Shown here in pieces: positions 2,452 to 46,342 of a DNA stretch of 53,220 nt (position 1 is its first letter; each line of letters opens with the position of its first letter). The position numbers were made by a program, and so were the translations under genes. This DNA comes from Candidatus Aminicenantales bacterium (GTDB lineage: Bacteria; Acidobacteriota; Aminicenantia; Aminicenantales; JAFGAV01): NCBI GenBank assembly GCA_049697055.1, contig JBAVVA010000087.1, forward strand, positions 1-53,220, given 5' to 3'. The notes beneath the pieces were generated by a model. That model had not been told where the DNA came from. It was given only the letters and a program-made list of their open reading frames with translations, and searched no databases.

Positions 2452-3303
2452 TCATTCGATCCATAATTTGATGAGGGTTTTTTCCTCACTGATCTCGATG
2501 ATGCTCATCTTGGTTCTTTCCAGGTCCTTCATGATCCGCTCCAGGTCATAGCCTTTCTGCCGGAGCATCTGCTTCTCCTTGGGAGGGATGGCCTGGATGG
2601 CCAGGTCGGCCAGGGCCAGGGGGATGTTGATCTTAATTTTGACCTTTCCGGCCTCGGTGACCTCGATCCTCAGCAGCCTGGTTTTGGCTTGAGAGTTCCC
2701 GTCCTCCCCCATGCCTTCCAGAGCCTCCGGGTCCACCCGCATCAGGCCAATCCTGGCCCTGTCCCTGAGCTCAGCGTCCTTTTCGTCCCTAATGATGTTT
2801 TTCAGGACCGGCACGGACTTGGCCGCCTGGGCCCGGTCCGTGATGTAACTGGTCTTGAAAGCGGCGTAGTACCGGACGACTTTGTTGGAACTGGCCAAGC
2901 GGCCCTCGATTTCCTTAAGGGTGGACCTGTTCCCCTTGGCATAGAGTTCATAGGCCAGGTCGATCACAATCACCTCGGACTCCTCGGCTAGGCTGGAGTT
3001 CCTGTCCTTGGACTGGAGGTAAGCCTGGAAGGCGGCTATAGCCTCAAACTCCCGGCCGTCGAGATGGCTCAGGCACTTGGCTTTGTAGAAAAGGGCCTGG
3101 GAGGCTGTCGGGCTCGAAGCATAATCCGCCAGGAGCGTCTCCAGCTTCTCCAGAGCCTGGTCCCATTTCCCGTCGAACAGAAGGACTTTCGCCTCCTGCA
3201 TGAGCCTCTCCTCCGGCTTGGCCGTTTGGCCGGCCGCCGGAGCGAGAGCCGCGAGGAGGATCAGCCCGGCCAGTGCAGCGATTTTAAAAGCTTTCGCGTT
3301 CAC
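2452..3303 (-). CDS. Secreted TPR/HEAT-like repeat protein ending in the shared C-terminal domain
   Basis: 283-aa ORF. Signal peptide MNAKAFKIAALAGLILLAALAPAAG. TPR-like helices. C-terminus reads KIKINIPLALADL...LIKLWIE. 20-nt overlap with the anti-sigma gene. Confidence 0.75.
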   Translation of the reverse strand: MNAKAFKIAALAGLILLAALAPAAGQTAKPEERLMQEAKVLLFDGKWDQALEKLETLLADYASSPTASQALFYKAKCLSHLDGREFEAIAAFQAYLQSKDRNSSLAEESEVIVIDLAYELYAKGNRSTLKEIEGRLASSNKVVRYYAAFKTSYITDRAQAAKSVPVLKNIIRDEKDAELRDRARIGLMRVDPEALEGMGEDGNSQAKTRLLRIEVTEAGKVKIKINIPLALADLAIQAIPPKEKQMLRQKGYDLERIMKDLERTKMSIIEISEEKTLIKLWIE

Positions 3304-4090
3304 TGTCCTGCAGCTCCTTTTTCACAAGATTGATCTTCAGCCAGAGCTGGCTGGCCTCGATCCGGTCCCGGATTTCGGCTCTTTCCTGGCCGGTCAGAGC
3401 CCCGCCGACTTGGGTCAGCTCCAGGATGAGCAGCTCGATCTGGTCGCAAATAGCTCTTGCCTTGGCCATCTGCCGCCGGCCGAGCTGAGAATTGATGTAT
3501 TTCTTCTTGGTCAGAAGGGCCTGTGCCTGCTGCTGGCCGAACCCCTCCCGCCACAGTTCGGTCGAATCGGCGGAGGCGGGCTGGACAAAATCGAGCAGCA
3601 GAGCCTGACTTTTATCGAGGTAACTCAACGTCTCCCGCCGGGCCAGCTCCAGTTCCACCCGGTCCAGAAACTCCGGCGAGGCGTAGAAGCCCGTGTCCCG
3701 GACGGGGCGCTGGAGGCCGGAGCGCAGCAGAAGGAACACGGCCAGGCCGCCGAGGAGAAGGCCGCCTAGAAGGCCGGCCGTGATGGGCCGGAGGAAGAAC
3801 GGCCCCAGCCAGCTTCTCCCGGAGGCCGGCGCCCGGAGTCTTTCCGGACGGTCGAACACCCGGCGGGCGATCCGCTCCGGAAGCGCTTCCCAGTCCACCG
3901 TGGCCATGACCTTTTCCATGTCTTTTTTTGCCGCGCCCGCGCCGTTGAAGATCCTCTTTAACGATTCCATCTCCCGGCGGCAGGCGGGACAATCTCCGAG
4001 GTGGCGGCTGACAGCCTGGCCATCCTCCCGGTCGAGGTCGCCCAAGAGAAAAGCAACCAGCTCCTGTTTGTCTTGACGGCAAGGCTTCAT
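3284..4090 (-). CDS. Anti-sigma factor, zf-HC2 type, single-pass membrane protein
   Basis: N-terminal H-x3-C-x2-C motif (HLGDCPACRRE). TM segment ITAGLLGGLLLGGLAVFLLL. ATGA overlap with the sigma gene at 4087-4090. Confidence 0.8.
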   Translation of the reverse strand: MKPCRQDKQELVAFLLGDLDREDGQAVSRHLGDCPACRREMESLKRIFNGAGAAKKDMEKVMATVDWEALPERIARRVFDRPERLRAPASGRSWLGPFFLRPITAGLLGGLLLGGLAVFLLLRSGLQRPVRDTGFYASPEFLDRVELELARRETLSYLDKSQALLLDFVQPASADSTELWREGFGQQQAQALLTKKKYINSQLGRRQMAKARAICDQIELLILELTQVGGALTGQERAEIRDRIEASQLWLKINLVKKELQDSERESF

Positions 4091-4674
4091 CGAGATACCC
4101 CCAAATATGGACTCAGGCGGCTCTTCAGGTTCTGAACAGCCTTGAAATGAAGGGATTTGACCGTCCCGGGCGCAATGTTCAGGATCCGGGCGATCTCCTC
4201 CACTTGAAATTGATTGTAGTGCCGCATGACGAAAATCAGGCGCTGCTTCTCGGCCAGCTTGTGGATGCAGCGGGACAGGATGTCCTTGACCTCGGCCGCG
4301 CGGCCGGCCGCCTCATTCTCCTCGGCTGGGAGGTTGAGCTCATCCAGGCTCTTCCCCGATTCGAACTCCTTGCGGCGCCGGTAGTTCTTGCGGAAATAAT
4401 CGACGCACAGGTTCTTGGCGATCTGCATGACCCAGCCCTGCAGGCTGTAGCCGCTGCGGAAAGTGTCGATTTTCTGATGCAGCCTCAAGAACGTCTCCTG
4501 AACAATGTCCATGGCGTCTTCCCGGTTGCCGAAAAAGGCATAAGCCAGCTGGAAGACTTTCTGCTGGTAGGTCCCCACCAGGTCCTTGAAAGCCTCCCGG
4601 TCGCCGGCCCTGATTCTATCGATGAGGCCGGCGGCCTGCTGGCCGCCCTGGAGCGCCGCTTCGGTCACGCTCAC
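4087..4674 (-). CDS. ECF-type RNA polymerase sigma-70 factor
   Basis: 195 aa. Region 2 (FKDLVGTYQQKVFQLAYAFFGNREDAMDIVQETFLRL) and region 4 (EIARILNIAPGTVKSLHFKAVQNLK) are recognisable. Confidence 0.9.
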   Translation of the reverse strand: MSVTEAALQGGQQAAGLIDRIRAGDREAFKDLVGTYQQKVFQLAYAFFGNREDAMDIVQETFLRLHQKIDTFRSGYSLQGWVMQIAKNLCVDYFRKNYRRRKEFESGKSLDELNLPAEENEAAGRAAEVKDILSRCIHKLAEKQRLIFVMRHYNQFQVEEIARILNIAPGTVKSLHFKAVQNLKSRLSPYLGVSR

Positions 4675-5189: not shown

Positions 5190-5371
5190 CCTTCGAATCT
5201 TTCTTAAATTTATAGAACCCCAGCCCCCCTGTATTCAGGGGGGTTAAAGAATGCTGCCTCCGGAAAGGTCGGCCGGAGGTACCTCCGAATCTTTCCTAAA
5301 TATATAACCCCCCCCTGCCCCCCTGGATTCAGGGGGGTTAAAGGACGGTGCCTCCGGAAAGGTCGGCGGAG
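5190..5371. repeat. Two tandem copies of a unit of about 91 bp, each with two GC hairpins
   Basis: Unit 1 spans 5190-5280 and unit 2 spans 5281-5371, mostly identical by eye. Each contains CCCCCTG-(t/g)att-CAGGGGG and a cctccgg...(c)cggag(g) hairpin. The unit junction forms the palindrome GGAGGTACCTCC. Confidence 0.8.
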
Positions 5372-19052: not shown

Positions 19053-21392
19053 ATGGAAAGAAAAAGGATGTACCAGGCGGCCCCATTGGTCTGTCTTCTT
19101 CTCTTCCTGGCGGGCTATGCCCAGAACACAGGAGCTCCGGTCCAAATACAAAAGGTCATCGTCCAGGCCTCCCCGATCAACCCCAAGGTCATTCTCCAGT
19201 CGGATGGGACCCTCTCCGTTTCCAAGGCGGCCTATGCCGCCGACCTGCCGCGGACTCTGGTCCTGGACCTGAATAACGCCCGAGTGGAACCCAACTTGAC
19301 CGTCTCCACCGAAGGAGAATCTTTCTTCGAGGAGATCAAGCTGGTGCCCAACGGCGAAGGCCCGCTGCGCCTCTATTTGAGCTTGAAGGAGCAAGCCTTC
19401 TTCCGCGTCACCACCGCGCCGGGACAGACGGTCCTGGAGTTGAACAGGGTCCTGGACCCGCAGACTCAGGACGTGCTGGACCAAGGATTCCGTCAGGAGC
19501 TGGCCTCCCGGACTATCACCACCTCCACCCTGAAGACGGTTAACGTCTCCCGGGAGAACGGGAACGTACAGGTCCGGGCGGCGCTGCAGGGCCGCATCCC
19601 CTACTACGTTTTTTCCATGAGCAACCCTCTGCGCCTCGTGGTGGACCTGTTCGACACCCTCTACAATAGAGCCACGGCAACCTACGCCGTCGGCACGGCC
19701 GGGGTCAGCCAGCTCAAAGTCGGCCAGTATCAAGTGCAGAACCCCTACACCATCACCCGGCTTGTCTTTGATATGAATGAGCCGGGGCCCTACGGTGTCG
19801 AAGCCGGCGACCAGATGCTGACCATTACTTTCTTCGGCGCCCCTACTTCGTTCCAGGCCGGGTTGATCGAAAAGGCCAAGCCCGCCGCCGAGCCTTCCGC
19901 CGCGGGGGCTCAACCCGCCCCGGCTGAGACTGCGGCTGCGGCCAAGACAAAAGAACCGGCGGCCGCCAAACAGGAAAAAGCGGAGAAACCCGCAGAGAAA
20001 CCCGCGGAGAAGCCCGCCGAAAAACCTGCGGAGAAACCCGGTCCGGAATCGGCCGCCCAGTCCGCGGGCGGCATCCAGGGCCGGTTCGGCGCCAAAACCA
20101 TCAGCCGGGGCGTATTGCCCTACAACGGCGAAGTGCTAAGCGTCAAGGTCAAGGACCAGGATCTGCGGGACATCATCCTGTACCTGGGTGAGTTCGCCGG
20201 CCTGAACGTCATCTTCGATCCTGAAGTCCGGGGCAAGGTCACCTGCAACTTCGAGTATGTGCCCTGGGACCAGATCCTGGATGCTATCCTCCGCACCAAC
20301 AAGATGGGCAAGGTCCTGGAAGGCAACGTCCTCCGTATCGCCCCCATGAACGTCCTGACCCGGGAAAGCGAGGACGAGCAAAAACTGCAGGAGAGTCAGG
20401 AGTTGAGCGGCCCCTTGTTGACCAAGACTTTCCCCCTGTCCTATTCCAAGGCCGCCGACGTGGAAAAACTCCTGGAGCAGAAGAAGTCCAGCCGCGGCAG
20501 GATCGACATGGATGACCGGACGAATACCCTGATCATCACCGATGTGCGGGACCGCATGGACCTCCTGGAAAAACTCATAACCCTTCTGGACACCCCCACC
20601 CCGCAAGTTTCCATCGAAGCCCGCATCGTGGAAGCCACCTCGAACTTCGTCAGGAACCTGGGCTTCCAGTGGGGCTTCCTGGGCCAAGCGGACCCCTTCT
20701 ACGGCAACCAGACCCAGCTCGAATTTCCGAATAAAGCCCGGCTGGACGGCGCCCTGATCCCTCAAGGAACAGCGACCAAGGGTCTGGGCGGTCCGCTGGG
20801 CGGCTATGCCATTAACCTGCCCTCTCCCTCTTTTACCACGGCGCTAGGCCTGTCGCTGGCCAACGTCCTGGACACCTTCCGCTTGGACGCCACCCTGACG
20901 GCCATGGAGACCGAGGGCCAGGGCCGCATCATCTCCTGCCCCAAAGTGACCGCCCAGAACAACAAAGAGGCCGAAATCATCCAGGGCCGGCAGATCCCCA
21001 TCCAGACCACGGCCAATTTCACGGTGACCACCCGTTTTGTCAACGCGGCCCTGGAGCTGCGGGCCACCCCCCAGATCACGGCCGAGGGAACGATCATCAT
21101 GACCCTGGACATCCAAAACAACGCCGCCGACTTTTCCAACCAGGTCAACGGCATCCCCTCCCTCACCACCCAGCGGGCTTCCACCACGGTCATGGTCCCT
21201 GACGGAGGCACAACGGTCATCGGCGGCATCTACCGGACTGAAGAATCCCAGAACGAGGAACGGGTGCCTTTCCTGAGCAAGATCCCCATCCTGGGGAACC
21301 TGTTTAAATCCAGATCCCGGACCCGGCAGAACAGGGAGCTTTTGATCTTCATCACGCCCCGGATCATCCGGCAAGGAGGAGTCCAGCCATGA
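19053..21392 (+). CDS. pilQ: Type IV pilus secretin PilQ with AMIN-like N-terminal domains
   Basis: 779 aa. Secretin C-terminus (VPFLSKIPILGNLFKS...LLIFITPRII). (AEKP)x5 linker. Confidence 0.9.
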   Translation: MERKRMYQAAPLVCLLLFLAGYAQNTGAPVQIQKVIVQASPINPKVILQSDGTLSVSKAAYAADLPRTLVLDLNNARVEPNLTVSTEGESFFEEIKLVPNGEGPLRLYLSLKEQAFFRVTTAPGQTVLELNRVLDPQTQDVLDQGFRQELASRTITTSTLKTVNVSRENGNVQVRAALQGRIPYYVFSMSNPLRLVVDLFDTLYNRATATYAVGTAGVSQLKVGQYQVQNPYTITRLVFDMNEPGPYGVEAGDQMLTITFFGAPTSFQAGLIEKAKPAAEPSAAGAQPAPAETAAAAKTKEPAAAKQEKAEKPAEKPAEKPAEKPAEKPGPESAAQSAGGIQGRFGAKTISRGVLPYNGEVLSVKVKDQDLRDIILYLGEFAGLNVIFDPEVRGKVTCNFEYVPWDQILDAILRTNKMGKVLEGNVLRIAPMNVLTRESEDEQKLQESQELSGPLLTKTFPLSYSKAADVEKLLEQKKSSRGRIDMDDRTNTLIITDVRDRMDLLEKLITLLDTPTPQVSIEARIVEATSNFVRNLGFQWGFLGQADPFYGNQTQLEFPNKARLDGALIPQGTATKGLGGPLGGYAINLPSPSFTTALGLSLANVLDTFRLDATLTAMETEGQGRIISCPKVTAQNNKEAEIIQGRQIPIQTTANFTVTTRFVNAALELRATPQITAEGTIIMTLDIQNNAADFSNQVNGIPSLTTQRASTTVMVPDGGTTVIGGIYRTEESQNEERVPFLSKIPILGNLFKSRSRTRQNRELLIFITPRIIRQGGVQP

Positions 21393-22458: not shown

Positions 22459-24612
22459 TCAGGGATAAAGGTGAACGGACCTGACCATCCGGGTCCGGGG
22501 CAGGCTCTCCTCCAGAACTCTCTCCAGGACACTCCTCTCGCTGGACCGCAACAGGACTTGAACGCGGTCGAAGCCCTTTAGCCGCGCAGCAGCGGCCCGG
22601 GCCGGCCCGAGGACTTCAACCGACCTCGACGCCGCGGCAACCCGCTTACAGAACAGCCGAGCTTGCAGGGCTAAGCCGCGGATTTCCTTTCCCTCCAACA
22701 GGATTTCGGCCAAGTGGGCAAAGGGCGGATAGTTCATGACCTTGCGGAACTCGATCTCGGACCGGTAGAACAGTTCATAGTCCCCCGCGGCGGCGGCCGC
22801 CACGGCATGGTGTTCGGGCAGGGCTGTCTGGATGAGGACCCGGCCTGAAGCGCGGGAGGCCGTGTCCATCATCCGGCAAAGCGTGTGATAAGCTTTCTGG
22901 CCGGCGCGGTAGTCGGGCAGACCCAGCTGCAGCTCGGGAAAGAGCACGGCGGCCAAGGAAAGCTCGGAGCTCATCAGCCGGAAAGCCAGAAGTTGAGTCC
23001 CGACCAGCAGGTCGATCTGACCTCGGCGAAATTTCTCCAGGACTTTCTTTTGAGCGGTCAGGCTGGGCACGACATCCGAATCGAAGACGGCCATCCTCAT
23101 CCGGGGAAAAAGGCGCCGCAGCTCTTCCGCCGCCGCCTCGACGCCCAGCTGGCGTCCGAGCCGGAGTGGGCCGCCGCAGGAGGGGCAAGCCCGCCAGGCC
23201 GGAAAACTCGCCGAGCAATAGCGGCAGACCAGGGTGTTTTTCTGTTTAGAGTAAGCCAGGGCGATATCGCAGCGCCGGCAGCGCGGGACATGGCCGCAGC
23301 GGAAGCAGATCAGCGAAGCGGCATACCCGCGGCGGTTGAGAAACACGGCCATTCGCTCCCCCCCGGCGGCTCCGGCCCGAAGGGCCTCGGCCAAATCCTT
23401 GGAGATGTAGGCCTTCTCCCGCCGGGCATCCACCACCAAGACCCGCCGGCCGGCTGGCTCCCGGCCCAAACGGATGAGCCGGCCGTCGGCTGAGGCCCGC
23501 TGGAAGCTTTCCACCGTGGGCCAGGATGAGCCGAAGACGACTGCCGCCCCCAAAGTCCGGCCGAGAAGACGGGCAGCCTGCCGCGCGTCATAGGACGGGC
23601 TTTCCGTTTGATAATAAGACTCATCCTGCTCCTCATCCAGGATGATGAGCCGCAAGCCGGGATGAGGCCCGAACAGGGCGGAACGCGGACCGACCACCAC
23701 TTCCGCCTGGCCGGACTTAATCCGGAGGTGTTCCCGTTCTTCCTGCGCTTGGGTCAACCGGCTGTGCAGGACGGCGGCTTTCCCCGGAAGCCGCTCCTCG
23801 ATTTTTCTCAGAAGGTCGCTGGAAAGCAAGATCTCCGGGACGAGAAAAAGCGTCCGGACAGGCCTGTCAGCCGAAGCCCGGATCAGGTGAAAATAGGCAG
23901 CCTCCCGGCTCTCCCGGCCGCCGAAAAGGTAAAACGGCGCGGACAGCACGCGGCCCGACCTCGGCCGAAGGGTAACAGCCTCCCTCAGCGCGGCCAGGCC
24001 GCTCGGGGCGGGGAAGTCCAAAACCAGCTGCCGCGGCCGCTCCGGCTTTCCTCGGGCTTTTCGTTTCTTCCCTTTCAGCCCGGGCCCGGGCAAGCTCTGG
24101 ATCAGCCCTTTGGCCTCCATCCGGGCTAAGATCGAGGCCGGGTTCTTCCCCAGCTTTCTCCGGAGATGGAGCGGACGATAGGACTTTCCGGCCAGCGCAG
24201 CGGCCAGCCTTCCCTCTTCCCCGCTCAACTTGCCCTCTCTCCAATCTGCTTCGCCCTTGGCCGTCAGCGAGATTCTGGCTCTGTCCCGGAGCAATAAGGA
24301 GGAGGGCAGGGACGAAGCCAAAAACGCGCCCCAGGATGACCGGTAATGCCGGCTGAGAAGATCGGTGAAGGCGAGAAAGCGGAGCGGAAAAATCGGCTCT
24401 TCGTCTAAAAGCGCCTTGATTTCCTTGAGCGGCGAGGGAGTCTCGGGGGGCCGGTCCCGGAGATGGACGATGAACCCCGTCAGGAGCCTTGGCCCCAGAG
24501 CGGCTGAAACCCGGCAGCCGAGGCGGGCCTTGGCGCCTAAGCTGTCGGGCAGAAGATAGGTGAACCGCTGGGGAAGGGGCAGGGGGAAGACCACTTCGGC
24601 ATAGCGGCTCAT
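22459..24612 (-). CDS. priA: Primosomal protein N' (PriA) homologue with degenerate ATPase motifs
   Basis: N-terminus YAEVVFPLPLPQRFTYLLP. LFLVPEI. A Cys-rich zinc region. The Walker A position reads GGRESREA and motif II reads DEEQ. Confidence 0.85.
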   Translation of the reverse strand: MSRYAEVVFPLPLPQRFTYLLPDSLGAKARLGCRVSAALGPRLLTGFIVHLRDRPPETPSPLKEIKALLDEEPIFPLRFLAFTDLLSRHYRSSWGAFLASSLPSSLLLRDRARISLTAKGEADWREGKLSGEEGRLAAALAGKSYRPLHLRRKLGKNPASILARMEAKGLIQSLPGPGLKGKKRKARGKPERPRQLVLDFPAPSGLAALREAVTLRPRSGRVLSAPFYLFGGRESREAAYFHLIRASADRPVRTLFLVPEILLSSDLLRKIEERLPGKAAVLHSRLTQAQEEREHLRIKSGQAEVVVGPRSALFGPHPGLRLIILDEEQDESYYQTESPSYDARQAARLLGRTLGAAVVFGSSWPTVESFQRASADGRLIRLGREPAGRRVLVVDARREKAYISKDLAEALRAGAAGGERMAVFLNRRGYAASLICFRCGHVPRCRRCDIALAYSKQKNTLVCRYCSASFPAWRACPSCGGPLRLGRQLGVEAAAEELRRLFPRMRMAVFDSDVVPSLTAQKKVLEKFRRGQIDLLVGTQLLAFRLMSSELSLAAVLFPELQLGLPDYRAGQKAYHTLCRMMDTASRASGRVLIQTALPEHHAVAAAAAGDYELFYRSEIEFRKVMNYPPFAHLAEILLEGKEIRGLALQARLFCKRVAAASRSVEVLGPARAAAARLKGFDRVQVLLRSSERSVLERVLEESLPRTRMVRSVHLYP

Positions 24613-31196: not shown

Positions 31197-31394
31197 AGGG
31201 GCTGGGGGAGGGCTTCGGCGCCTGGCCGCGGTTCTTCACGCCGCGGAATCTCCGGCTTTCTCGGCGGTTGCGCAACTCGCTTCCTGCGGAAGCTCAAACA
31301 TGCTCACCTGCCGACAAGAATATGTCAGAAGCCTTCGAAACCCGTCGATTCCGGGCTGAACCGCTCATGGCGCCTCGCTCCTCTCCCAGCCCCT
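31197..31394 (-). repeat. Copy C (inverted orientation) of the unclassified structured intergenic element
   Basis: Its reverse complement aligns block by block with 45142-45388. Closing helix AGGGGCTGGG (31197-31206) / CCCAGCCCCT (31385-31394). Core gaagctcaaacatgc at 31289-31303. Confidence 0.55.
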
Positions 31395-31520
31395 CTACAC
31401 CAATAGAGAGGCAACTACACAATTTGTCATAAAGCTTTTCCGGCCAAAACCCAAGCCTCTGCTGCTTTCTTAACTGTGCTTGCCAGACGATCGGAGAAGC
31501 TTACTGTCTGGGCCAGAGGA

Positions 31521-32516
31521 TTAAGGCTGCAAATTGAGCTTAGAAAGGAAATGCCGCTCCAGACGGCTGGCCAGGCCGGACCAAGTGAATTCCTGTATCT
31601 GGCGGTACCCGGCCTCGGCCAGCCGGAGACGAAGCTCACGGTCCCGGATCAGGCGCTCGATGGCCCTCCTCAGCAAGAAGGGCAACGGCCAGGGGACGAC
31701 CAGGGCGGTCTGTCCGGGGAAGGCGAAATCCCGCGTGCCGCTGGAAGTGCAGACCACGGCCACCCGGCAGGCCATGGCCTCGGCCGCCGTGTTCGCCCAG
31801 CCGGCGCGCCTCTCGGCGCTGACGAAGATGTCCGCCCTGGAAAAAAGCGGGGCCAGGCGGTCCTGGGGAAGGTCCAAATGGAATTCATGAGCCAGCCGGG
31901 TCTTCAAAAGCGGGCGGGGGTCTCGCCTGTCCTGGCCGACCCTGGTATCAAACAGGATGAGCTTCAAGCGCGGATAGCGGGAGGCCAGGCCGTTCACCGC
32001 CTTCACCGCCTGCTGGATGCCCTTGCGTTTCTTATACAATCGGCCGTAGCACAAAATGCGGATCTCACCCGCCGGCCTTTCTTCAGGATCGGCGGCGGGA
32101 TAAAAAATTTCCGGGTTAACGCCGCCGGCGGCTTTGAAACAGTCCAGCCCGTATTTTCTGCGGAGGCGACGGCAAAGTCCTTCGGAGTTGGCCAGAAAAA
32201 AATAAGGTTTTCGGGCCGCCTCACGCTCCTGCTTGTGACCGGCCAGGACAAAATAGAAATACTTCGTCTTGGCCCGCAGCTTGTCAAAAAAGGGGAGGAT
32301 AGAATACTCGCTGCAGAGGCCGACATCAAAGGCCTCCTGGTCCAGAGCTGCCCAGGGCCGGGCTTCCCCCCTGAAAGCCAGCCAGCCAGGCTTTCCGCCT
32401 TCCGGATGGAAGAGGACAAAGCTGTGCCCCCGCCGGACGAGCTCATTTCCCAGCTCCAAATAGCGCCGGACGCCGCCGAAGACCTCGACATGGGGCAGCA
32501 GGGCCGCAATGCGCAT
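31521..32516 (-). CDS. GT-B fold glycosyltransferase (GT4/GT1-like)
   Basis: 331 aa. N-terminus MRIAALLPHVEVFGGVRRYLELGNELVRRGH. C-terminal region has E-x7-E-like features. Confidence 0.8.
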   Translation of the reverse strand: MRIAALLPHVEVFGGVRRYLELGNELVRRGHSFVLFHPEGGKPGWLAFRGEARPWAALDQEAFDVGLCSEYSILPFFDKLRAKTKYFYFVLAGHKQEREAARKPYFFLANSEGLCRRLRRKYGLDCFKAAGGVNPEIFYPAADPEERPAGEIRILCYGRLYKKRKGIQQAVKAVNGLASRYPRLKLILFDTRVGQDRRDPRPLLKTRLAHEFHLDLPQDRLAPLFSRADIFVSAERRAGWANTAAEAMACRVAVVCTSSGTRDFAFPGQTALVVPWPLPFLLRRAIERLIRDRELRLRLAEAGYRQIQEFTWSGLASRLERHFLSKLNLQP

Positions 32517-32562
32517 ATTTTTAGATATTTTACCAGATTTTTCATTTGTCTGAGAGAGAGAT

Positions 32563-32722
32563 GGTCGGGGCAGTCGCAGCGACCATCAGGGAAGGTTTAG
32601 CCTTTCTGAGCGGGCTTCGAAGGAACCCCGTTCTTCGGGGCGCCGAGGATGTTTGAGCTTCTTGATCACCAGGGAAGATGTCGGGAAGAACAAGAAGCTA
32701 ATGTTTTAAGCTATTTTTTTTA
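32563..32722 (+). repeat. Copy A (5' half only) of the structured intergenic element, ending in a hairpin plus T-tract
   Basis: 32563-32667 aligns with 45142-45244, including a 30-nt identical core at 32638-32667. AGCTTCTTG (32656-32664) pairs with CAAGAAGCT (32691-32699). A T8 run lies at 32714-32721. Confidence 0.55.
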
Positions 32723-34007: not shown

Positions 34008-34048
34008 TCCCGCATCGCTGAGCGGGAGTCCATCAGCGCGCTTCGACT

Positions 34049-34121
34049 GGCCAGGTAGCTCAGTCGGTAGAGCGAGAGACTGAAAATCTCTGCGTCGGCG
34101 GTTCGATTCCGTCCCTGGCCA
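34049..34121 (+). tRNA. tRNA-Phe (anticodon GAA)
   Basis: 73-nt cloverleaf. Acceptor stem GGCCAGG/CCTGGCC. D arm GCTC/GAGC. Anticodon stem AGAGA/TCTCT with loop CTGAAAA. T loop TTCGATT. CCA is not encoded. Confidence 0.95.
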
Positions 34122-34157
34122 TTCCTTCCTTCAGCTTAGAGGGACCGAGCCGTCGAA

Positions 34158-44445: not shown

Positions 44446-44994
44446 ATGAACCTGGCGAATGCCTTGACCGGCCTGCGGATCTTGATCATCCCCTTTTTGG
44501 TAATCGTACTTCTGTCCTCATTCAAAGGCCGAGAGATGGTCGCCTCCATCCTGTTCGTCACAGCCTGGATGACCGATTGGCTCGACGGCCTGTGGGCCAG
44601 GAAAAATAAGAAGATATCAACCCTGGGCCAGCTTCTCGATCCGACCGCGGACAAGCTGCTTATCGTTTCCGTGCTGATCTGCCTTGTGGCGACCGGCCAG
44701 GTCAAAGCCTGGATGGCGGTCATCATTATCGGCCGGGAAGTGGCCGTCTCCGGGTTCCGGGCCATCGCCGCCTCCCGCGGCATGACCATCCCCGCTTCCC
44801 TGCTGGGCAAATCCAAAATGATCCTGGAGTCCGTGACTCTCTCGCTCCTTCTCCTGGGCCGCCATTATCTCGGAGGCTTCTATATCACTGCCCTGATCGG
44901 GCTGTGGCTGGTGGTGGCTGTCTCGCTGATCTCAGCCGCCGAGTATTACATTAAATATATACCTCATCTGACCCCAGGCCCGCCCGCAAAATAA
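44446..44994 (+). CDS. pgsA: CDP-diacylglycerol-glycerol-3-phosphate 3-phosphatidyltransferase
   Basis: CDP-alcohol phosphotransferase motif DWLDGLWAR...GQLLDPTADKLL. Confidence 0.9.
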   Translation: MNLANALTGLRILIIPFLVIVLLSSFKGREMVASILFVTAWMTDWLDGLWARKNKKISTLGQLLDPTADKLLIVSVLICLVATGQVKAWMAVIIIGREVAVSGFRAIAASRGMTIPASLLGKSKMILESVTLSLLLLGRHYLGGFYITALIGLWLVVAVSLISAAEYYIKYIPHLTPGPPAK

Positions 44995-45007: not shown

Positions 45008-45036
45008 TTGCTAGAAATTGGCTGGAAATATATATT
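45008..45036 (+). promoter_or_regulatory. Candidate promoter TTGCTA-N17-TATATT reading into element copy B
   Basis: Hexamers at 45008-45013 and 45031-45036. No protein gene lies downstream on this strand. Confidence 0.4.
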
Positions 45037-45130
45037 CCGATGGCGACGGACAGCCCTCGGCAATAAGATTTTGTGTTTGTTTTCCCAAGAAAAATGGCCA
45101 AGCTGTCGCAGCAACCATGACCGCCTTTGT

Positions 45131-45388
45131 AGAAAAGGGCAGGCCGGGGCTGCCCGCAGCGACCATGCGAGGGTTTAGCCTTCCTGAACTGCCCTTCGAG
45201 GGAACCCGGCTTCCGGGCGCCGAGGATGTTTGAGCTTCTTGATCGTCACGGAAGACGATAAAAATTCCAGGGAACATGATATGAGCCTTGGTTATTCGCG
45301 CGAGTTCCGCAGGCGCCGAGAAGCGCGGTGAAGGAACGGCGTTAAAAACCCGAGCGGGAGCTAGGACAGCCCCGGCCTGCCCTTTTCT
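45131..45388 (+). repeat. Copy B (full length) of the unclassified structured intergenic element; candidate ncRNA
   Basis: A perfect 22-bp closing inverted repeat (45131-45152 / 45367-45388) encloses 214 nt that are homologous to copies A and C. Confidence 0.6.
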
Positions 45389-45418
45389 AAATCAAATAGG
45401 AGCAAACGAAGGGTGTGC

Positions 45419-46342
45419 TTAGGCCAGGGCGGCTCGCGCCTTTTCCAAAGAATCCATATCTTCAACGTTGAGCACGGTGAAAGGCTGGGGCCAGCCGCGG
45501 CCGATCCTTTTTATCAGGCCGGTCAGGACCTTGCCCGAGCCCAGTTCGACGAAATGCGTCACCCCCTCGCCCTTGAGCCTGTCCATGGATTCTTGCCACA
45601 GGACCGGCCGGCTGACCTGCCGCTTGAGCGCGTCACGGGCCTCCTCTCCGCTGCGGATGGGGCGGGCGTCTACGTTGGTCACCACCGGAAAGCGAAGGTC
45701 CTGGAAAACGGTCCGGTCCAGGTCCACGGCCAGCTTTTTTTCGGCGCTTTTCATCAGGCTCGAATGGAAAGGCGCGCTGACCGAAAGGAAGACCGAGCGC
45801 GGCGCTTTGATCAGGGCTACCGCTTCCTCTACCGCCGCTTTGTCTCCGGCGATGACGGTCTGCTCCGGGCTGTTCCAGTTGGCCACTTCGGCTATTCCCG
45901 AGCTGACCCGGGCCAGGCCGTCGAGCACAGACTGCCGGTCCGCACCCAACAGGGCGGCCATGGCCCCCTGCCCGACCGGCACGGCTCCCTGCATGTACCG
46001 GCCCCTTTTATGGACGAGGCTGACGGCGTCCTCGAAAGCGAGGCTGCCGGCCGCTACCAGGGCCGAATATTCGCCCAGGCTGTGGCCGGCGGCCAAAGCC
46101 GGCTCCGAGCCCAGCAGCCGGCCGGCGATGGTGCTGACCACGAGCAAGGCCGGCTGGGTGTTTTGGGTCAGCCTCAATTCCTCCTCGGGGCCCTCAAAGC
46201 AAAGCCGCGAGAGTTTGGTGCCGAGGACTTCATCGGCCCGGCCGAAAAGTTCCCGGGCCACTTCGGAGCGGTCGTAAAAATCACGGCCCATGCCTACCGA
46301 CTGCGAGCCCTGACCGGGGAAAAGATGAACGATCCGTTTCAT
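45419..46342 (-). CDS. fabD: Malonyl-CoA:ACP transacylase
   Basis: Contains FPGQGSQSVGMG and GHSLGEYSAL. Confidence 0.95.
   Translation of the reverse strand: MKRIVHLFPGQGSQSVGMGRDFYDRSEVARELFGRADEVLGTKLSRLCFEGPEEELRLTQNTQPALLVVSTIAGRLLGSEPALAAGHSLGEYSALVAAGSLAFEDAVSLVHKRGRYMQGAVPVGQGAMAALLGADRQSVLDGLARVSSGIAEVANWNSPEQTVIAGDKAAVEEAVALIKAPRSVFLSVSAPFHSSLMKSAEKKLAVDLDRTVFQDLRFPVVTNVDARPIRSGEEARDALKRQVSRPVLWQESMDRLKGEGVTHFVELGSGKVLTGLIKRIGRGWPQPFTVLNVEDMDSLEKARAALA

Follow-up and report, generated by a model that had tools for sequence, protein, structure and literature searches.

The structured sequence between pgsA and fabD is probably an old, immobilised copy of a lineage-specific, MITE-like repeat of Candidatus Aminicenantes. 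It lies on contig JBAVVA010000087.1, of which 53,220 nucleotides were analysed (the window), and is one of three copies there. An earlier sequence-only reading had already placed these copies, and its account of them is confirmed: B is full, C is full and inverted, and A has the 5' half only. The repeat family is previously undescribed and, as far as scanned, confined to Aminicenantes; a search of the literature on Aminicenantes repeats or non-coding RNAs found none. The copies and the parts of B are laid out as follows.

45131 to 45388, + strand: copy B, full core without terminal inverted repeats; perfect 22-bp inverted repeat and a covariance-model match at 45147-45374 (150 bits)
45131-45152 and 45367-45388, + strand: basal stem P1 of B, a perfect inverted repeat
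45158 to 45180, + strand: conserved blocks 1 and 2 of B (AGCGACCAT ... GGTTTAGCC), invariant or nearly invariant columns in alignments A2 and A5
45205 to 45217, + strand: hairpin P5 of the three-way junction (CCCGG-CTT-CCGGG), which every subfamily has, in differing sequence; its pairs covary
45226 to 45306, + strand: arm P6 of B, with an apical length that varies and flanking blocks that are invariant between copies
45226-45235, + strand: conserved ATGTTTGAGC of P6, an invariant flanking block
45236-45299, + strand: variable apical insertion of P6, 64 nt, differing in length between copies
45300-45306, + strand: conserved GCGAGTT of P6, an invariant flanking block
45337 to 45361, + strand: conserved blocks 5 and 6 of B (CGGCGTTAAAAACC ... 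GGGAGC), invariant columns in A2 and A5
45106 to 45123, + strand: fragment to the left of B resembling block 1 of an A-type copy (GTCGCAGCAACCATGACC); the relative L143 holds a longer A-like piece there
32563 to 32678, + strand: copy A, limited to the 5' half and degenerate at its left end, from blastn to B and a covariance-model match that leaves the 3' half unmatched
31197 to 31394, - strand: copy C, full core of a diverged subfamily (covariance model 96 bits; fold z = -6.9)

Copy B occupies the non-coding gap between the convergent pgsA and fabD genes, which measures 424 nt from the pgsA stop at 44994 to the fabD stop at 45419, as had been described; Pfam confirms the two genes as PF01066 and PF00698. 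Its closing helix is exact, with 45131-45152 the perfect reverse complement of 45367-45388 and 214 nt enclosed, and the arms given by a repeat finder are longer, 26 nt at 96% (45130-45155 and 45364-45389). The helix is nothing peculiar to B; it corresponds to the basal stem of the rod, which varies within the family. The fold of B stands well apart from shuffled sequences (z = -7.9). Its GGTTT block pairs with AAACC of block 5, and the last pair of this helix shows pyrimidine-purine covariation (UA:31, CG:5, UG:2 in 38 cluster representatives). P5 takes the form CCCCG..CGGGG in A and CCGGCYC..GCCGG in the LacPavin type, and the apex of P6 can be as short as 3 nt or exceed 200 nt depending on the copy, the minimal natural version being GAGC-GAA-GCGAG in L110, where the whole copy takes up 168 nt (2583-2750). 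The left arm of B read on the fabD strand (45157-45131, - strand) is a terminator-like hairpin (GGGCAGCCCCGGCCTGCCC) followed by TTTTCT; the predicted hairpin could terminate fabD transcripts.

Copy A is flanked by two divergent genes, one for a GT4 glycosyltransferase and one of the XRE/S24 type. Blastn aligns it to B at 82% identity over 118 nt (E = 2e-23), and the 30-nt core said to be common to both is exact (32638-32667 = 45215-45244). The covariance model scores A at 21.6 bits (E = 2e-4) through the 5' half alone, the fold is weak against shuffles (z = -2.6), and at the orthologous locus (L008) A is in the same half-copy state. Copy C has the GT4 gene on one side and a DUF465 gene on the other. 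Its homology to B had been described as a series of blocks in the same order; the order holds, but blastn shares just a 51-nt block (72%) and a 17-nt block. The model, which was built from relatives, nevertheless scores C at 96 bits (E = 1e-24) against 150 for B, and C is 91-93% identical to copies elsewhere (L013, L082, L129). The divergence of A and C between the window and MFD04408 was set against third codon positions, where the local background is too low to inform.

Beyond A, B and C, no significant covariance-model match was found in the 53-kb window. Two weak - strand matches, at 19837-19942 (12 bits, E = 0.085) and 22605-22701 (10 bits, E = 0.35), have no junction region and are probably due to chance. 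C on the - strand and A on the + strand bracket the GT4 gene at 31521-32516 (window 31197-32678) with their 5' ends facing it, which is probably a coincidence. The window also holds two 56-nt direct repeats, 91% identical and 94 nt apart (5218-5273 and 5312-5367), each with a hairpin CCCCCCTG-N4-CAGGGGGG; they are unrelated to the element studied here.

The element is neither a known RNA nor a coding sequence. With Rfam 15, only tRNAs scored at the gathering thresholds across the window and 12 loci, in agreement with the sequence-only reading, which had recognised no RNA family. In E-value mode, the best sub-threshold matches to B and to a minimal copy are unrelated (E = 0.19-7) and amount to noise at E <= 10. 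A tRNA or tmRNA origin was rejected, because ARAGORN finds only a tRNA-Phe in the window (34048-34122). Reading frames are not conserved, as had been noted: the frame of the GGTTYAGCC block changes from copy to copy, and mini-ORFs beginning MFEL stop after 9-29 unrelated codons. A coding role, whether as such a mini-ORF or as the start-and-stop remnant of a transposase, was rejected because the frames are not conserved between subfamilies.

The family is large. An exact pattern, GGTTYAGCC-N40-60-ATGTTTGAGCTTC, was scanned against GTDB with one genome per species and gave 19 matches, all in four Candidatus Aminicenantes MAGs (9, 6, 3 and 1 copies); no species representative outside these four matched. 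A pattern from the other arm, anchored on block 5, found at least 120 further copies on metagenome contigs from sediment and freshwater, bringing the total above 140, and the full copies form at least 48 clusters at 85% identity. The window itself is ~96% identical to chromosome OY969762.1 (L143), which is one of the scan-positive genomes. Nearly identical copies occur at unrelated loci of one genome, and several contigs carry two. Among the metagenome matches listed, 23 of 80 contigs end within 300 nt of the element, an effect typical of repeats. A viral origin was rejected, since two matches on viral contigs are due to chance and show no further similarity.

Several copies are arranged or enlarged in other ways. 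At L010, a copy at 2954-3186 (-) lies beside one at 3330-3538 (+), and the diverged copy scores 51 bits. In two MAGs, a canonical copy has a diverged head-to-head copy ~100-150 nt upstream, and similar upstream segments are seen in L003, L014, L017 and L018; such pairs suggest a larger composite repeat unit. Hairpin-rich insertions of 60-110 nt interrupt single copies in the apical region (L012 and L020), the 3' arm (L015) or P5 (L104), with the remaining fold kept. The ortholog of window 31197-31394 in L008 (3990-4328), and likewise in L143 (~3950-4330), is a copy C with two extra segments of ~150 and ~94 nt. In this 96%-identical relative, the segments occupy mirror positions on both arms of one helix, and the window copy has neither.

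We also observed a second small repeat family, with the core CCAACGYTCGCTTCGCTC and an adjoining hairpin GGAAGGAAACCC..GGGTTTCCTTCC. None lies in the window, several are nested inside copies of the main element, and the nested insertions differ between 96%-identical genomes. Its 10 instances in 8 loci are these.

L008: 4027-4044
L055: 2889 and 5864
L075: 3138
L087: 764 and 7011
L079: 3996
L107: 5504
L122: 6200
L125: 2093

Complete copies reveal how the family is bounded. They span 256-377 nt, with two longer examples at 511 and 592 nt, contain no ORF, and carry ~25-bp terminal inverted repeats, GGTTCTCTTCCATTTYGTGTGGG ... CCCACACRAAATGGAAGAGAACC, outside the region that they have in common with B. 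With up to 3 mismatches allowed, there are 29 pairs of GGTTCTCTTCCATTT-type termini, spaced 256-592 nt apart. The 8-nt flanks of these pairs are identical at 8/8 positions in 9 cases and at 7/8 in 8 more (17/29 at 7/8 or better; mean 6.2 of 8), whereas two shifted controls average 2.0 and 2.4 of 8 with none reaching 7/8. The duplicated targets are 84% A+T, compared with 44% in the loci. Terminal inverted repeats and 8-bp target duplications, combined with small size and many unrelated loci, are defining features of a MITE (PMC3184786), and we therefore assign the family to this class: its members are small, have no transposase ORF and are present in many copies at unrelated loci. B, A and C have neither terminal repeats nor target duplications, and we infer their presumed mobility from their relatives.

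No cognate autonomous element or transposase with matching termini was found in the window or in ~1 Mb of repeat-carrying loci. Terminus pairs 0.7-3 kb apart in the fetched loci enclose no transposase-like ORF, and an IS26 transposase query (an approximate sequence) found no IS6-type transposase in the fetched DNA by tblastn. We rejected an autonomous element with its gene in the apical loop, as no right half has a distant left half enclosing an ORF. A second subfamily, in the LacPavin and C20 MAGs, has a different outer inverted repeat around the same core, and no target duplication was found for it.

The core itself comprises ~170 nt and adopts the same fold in all subfamilies, a long rod that ends in a three-way junction formed with hairpin P5 and arm P6. 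The rod begins with P1, a long basal stem of variable sequence, and continues through an internal loop in which AGCGACCAU lies opposite GGGAGCGAGG. This is followed by a GGUUY/RAACC helix, an asymmetric loop (A opposite GUKAA), the GCC/GGC and UUCCC/GGGAA helices, and a variable helix that leads into the junction. P6 contains a conserved asymmetric loop, UGUYUGA/GAGUU, closed by GC/GC, below a variable apical stem. The loop sequences are nearly invariant across copies.

Helices had been reported to be kept by different sequences in A, B and C, and the larger family shows strong covariation. In 38 cluster representatives, aligned with the apical region swapped for GAAA as a synthetic edit, 94.6% of cells are paired, while sliding the partners leaves 36-52%; 29 of 41 pairs show double changes, and the covariation score of 0.439 exceeds the 0.08-0.13 otherwise obtained and is reached by none of 500 shuffles. 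The 95 distinct unedited copies, aligned to the model, give 93.6% compared with 35-54% and double changes at 31 of 41 pairs.

The two strands are not equivalent. The + strand, in the orientation of B, folds better as RNA in 93 of 96 copies with a mean gain of 14.7 kcal/mol, and the consensus energy is -39.4 compared with -28.8 for the complement. G-U exceeds A-C by 72:19 over pairs predicted on either strand and by 32:14 over pairs predicted on both. In a larger alignment the ratio is 195:44, with G-U ahead at 28 pairs and A-C at 5 (p = 7e-5), an excess that is partly inherited within subfamilies of related copies and that should be read with alignment A6 having been fitted to the + strand model. 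Since G-U is tolerated far above A-C, one strand appears to be under structural constraint, most simply as RNA.

These asymmetries bear directly on the idea that the element is a palindrome at the DNA level only, its arms covarying through shared transposase-binding sites or through template switching (quasi-palindrome correction) with no RNA involved. The terminal repeats and target duplications do indicate a DNA transposon, copies are oriented at random to genes and lack an internal promoter, and the hairpin of each copy is nearly complete as far as its termini. The matching of transposase sites and template switching are both strand-symmetric, however, and so do not predict the excess of G-U over A-C or its distribution over the pairs; nor do they sit well with the better folding of the + strand. 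Moreover, the arms are not mirror images, as they contain the asymmetric loops A/GUKAA and UGUYUGA/GAGUU and the one-sided hairpin P5. We consider a palindrome without RNA unlikely.

In a MITE with such a core, we give a role at the RNA level about an even chance. Such a role would be plausible from the modeled fold, although the absence of a recurrent promoter and the random orientation leave the source of + strand transcription unaccounted for. A stronger version is that the core would be a functional RNA needed for the element's own spread, with the DNA-transposon ends only its vehicle; it could, for example, be the guide or binding partner of a transposase or host factor that has gone unrecognised, or scaffold a mobile ribonucleoprotein. 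Such an RNA would account for an interior conserved on a par with the termini and for its presence in at least two different outer shells, but we think this version quite improbable.

The sequence-only reading pointed to stand-alone small-RNA genes with their own promoters, represented at B by a sigma70-like match at 45008-45036; on such a view, copies would have spread by duplication and not by transposition. Strong covariation, invariant loops, strand specificity and the lack of coding potential would all suit such genes. The match upstream of B does exist, at 9/12 of the consensus, but 0.5 such matches are expected there by chance, and its sequence is not conserved in L143, a 94-96% identical relative. 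Nor do 25 full copies share an internal sigma70-like promoter on either strand. Gene duplication also does not account for the terminal inverted repeats and the 8-bp duplications, for near-identical copies at unrelated loci within one genome, or for the deletion and rearrangement of B in close relatives. Many copies with conserved termini (here ~25-bp TIRs) and TSDs (here 8 bp) are, moreover, what that reading had itself named as pointing to a mobile element and away from a functional RNA. Stand-alone RNA genes are thus very unlikely.

Position relative to genes was analyzed at 57 loci. In GC-rich DNA an antisense ORF is often the longest one, so genes were called by codon log-odds, with those of the window as the training set. 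The element lies between divergent genes at 23 loci, tandem-antisense at 16, tandem-sense at 10 and between convergent genes at 8, and therefore it is not co-oriented with genes. Its preference for promoter-bearing spacers fits an A+T-rich target. The convergent, divergent and tandem settings in the window are as had been stated, and the neighbors there are housekeeping genes.

A riboswitch, leader or terminator acting in cis on adjacent genes would be expected in a fixed place upstream of a recurrent gene class, and the neighboring genes are unrelated across loci. Some individual copies do have a suggestive placement: A and C directly precede the XRE/S24 and DUF465 genes in the same orientation, the L002 copy ends at the ribosome-binding site of the next gene, and the left arm of B offers the terminator-like hairpin with its TTTTCT on the fabD strand. 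B itself, however, lies between two gene ends, the orientation counts show no alignment with neighbors, and there is no match to a riboswitch family. Regulation in cis of adjacent genes is accordingly so improbable as to be nearly negligible.

The state of B agrees with that of a MITE copy that has lost its ends. Its identity to L061 and L090, which bear terminal inverted repeats, is 74-75% but is confined to 45136-45382 and stops inside the stem. The outer stem of B (AGAAAAGGGCAGGCC) aligns with the interior of the L061 stem and, like its terminal sequence, is found at no other locus; B is therefore without both terminal repeats. A TA-duplication (IS630-like) reading of the B ends was rejected, as the flanking T and A just lengthen the palindrome by one pair.

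Relatives differ at this locus by deletion and rearrangement, and none offers a clean empty site. In L146 and L147, whose FabD is 92% identical to that of the window, the orthologous spacer is 119 nt and keeps only the 3' arm of B and the right end of a C-type copy. In L143 (FabD 94% identical), it is 681 nt and contains an A-like 5' fragment together with the 5' half of B joined to a C-type copy with nested insertions. Because these relatives hold deleted or rearranged remnants, B is ancient at the locus; it is older than the split from relatives with FabD 92-94% identical and is intact only in the window's lineage. The fragment at 45106-45123, where L143 has the longer A-like 5' piece GTCGCAGCGATCATCAGGGAAGGTATAACC, is what remains of an older copy. 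Along with the remnants in relatives, it indicates that the spacer has gained and lost copies over a long time.

Taken together, the following mechanism is proposed. Copies would be moved in trans by a DDE-type transposase making 8-bp staggered cuts, and the termini look IS6-like or ISL3-like. The family inserts, as its flanks indicate, at A+T-rich sites with an 8-bp duplication and is bounded by 25-bp inverted repeats. Structural selection would act on one strand of the core, most simply in the form of a transcript to which a conserved partner binds, and this putative RNA would serve either the element or the host. B, which has kept the core and the 22-bp stem and lost both terminal repeats, would no longer be able to move. 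In its present state it is most likely just carried along passively in the spacer between pgsA and fabD and may at most form a stable hairpin in read-through transcripts.

Naming and delimiting the family has practical value, as it breaks assemblies of an uncultured and widespread sediment phylum and would otherwise be mis-annotated as 'intergenic'. The analysis also provides a covariance model and an alignment of ~100 copies for a structured element absent from Rfam. Strong covariation and the signatures of a mobile element coexist here, and neither should be taken to exclude the other. If the fold is an expressed RNA, the family would be a tractable example of a structured RNA spreading on a DNA-transposon chassis.

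Several known systems resemble the repeat in part. HEARO or omega RNA (IscB-TnpB) and the IS110 bridge RNA are likewise conserved, covarying, multi-copy, structured non-coding sequences on transposable elements. They adjoin a nuclease or recombinase gene, however, and their elements have no terminal inverted repeats with an 8-bp target duplication, whereas no such gene lies beside any copy of the present repeat and no Rfam match was obtained. REP and REPIN sequences are intergenic, hairpin-forming and multi-copy, with stems kept by compensatory change, and are mobilised in trans by a single-copy RAYT gene. REPs are GC-rich palindromes of 20-40 nt and REPINs reach ~100 nt, without the combination of terminal inverted repeats and target duplications, whereas the elements described here are ~300 nt long with 25-bp inverted repeats, 8-bp duplications and a branched core.

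[quoted passage not shown] In the IS6 consensus, the GG tip is accompanied by cTGTt and caaa motifs and by 8-bp repeats, and two IS6 MITEs, of 227 and 336 bp, are on record (PMC7986276). The termini here are GGTTCTCTTCCATTT, in which the cTGTt and caaa motifs are matched only in part (CTCTT, CCATTT). Repeats of ~8 bp are also made by ISL3, IS256, IS1595 and IS66 elements. Given 8-bp repeats in several IS families and a partial motif match, the parent family is therefore not fixed on IS6.

The closest counterparts are bacterial MITEs with conserved RNA-type folds, above all bcr1 but also Correia/nemis and ERIC, which are similarly ~150-400 bp, non-coding, multi-copy and intergenic, with terminal inverted repeats, target duplications and long stem-loops. 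Known MITEs, up to ~400 bp in size, include ones whose RNA folds into long stem-loops, and in the bcr1 repeats of the Bacillus cereus group a branched RNA-level structure is maintained by compensatory changes (PMC3184786). The present repeat is unrelated to these in sequence, and its duplication is 8 bp in A+T-rich DNA, against 5 bp for bcr1. It also differs in that its interior (the 170-nt rod with its three-way junction and invariant loops) is conserved to the same degree as its termini in at least 48 clusters and occurs with at least two different outer layers, and its hosts are uncultured Aminicenantes. The deep conservation of the interior, the branched architecture and the second outer inverted repeat in two MAGs are unusual for a MITE.
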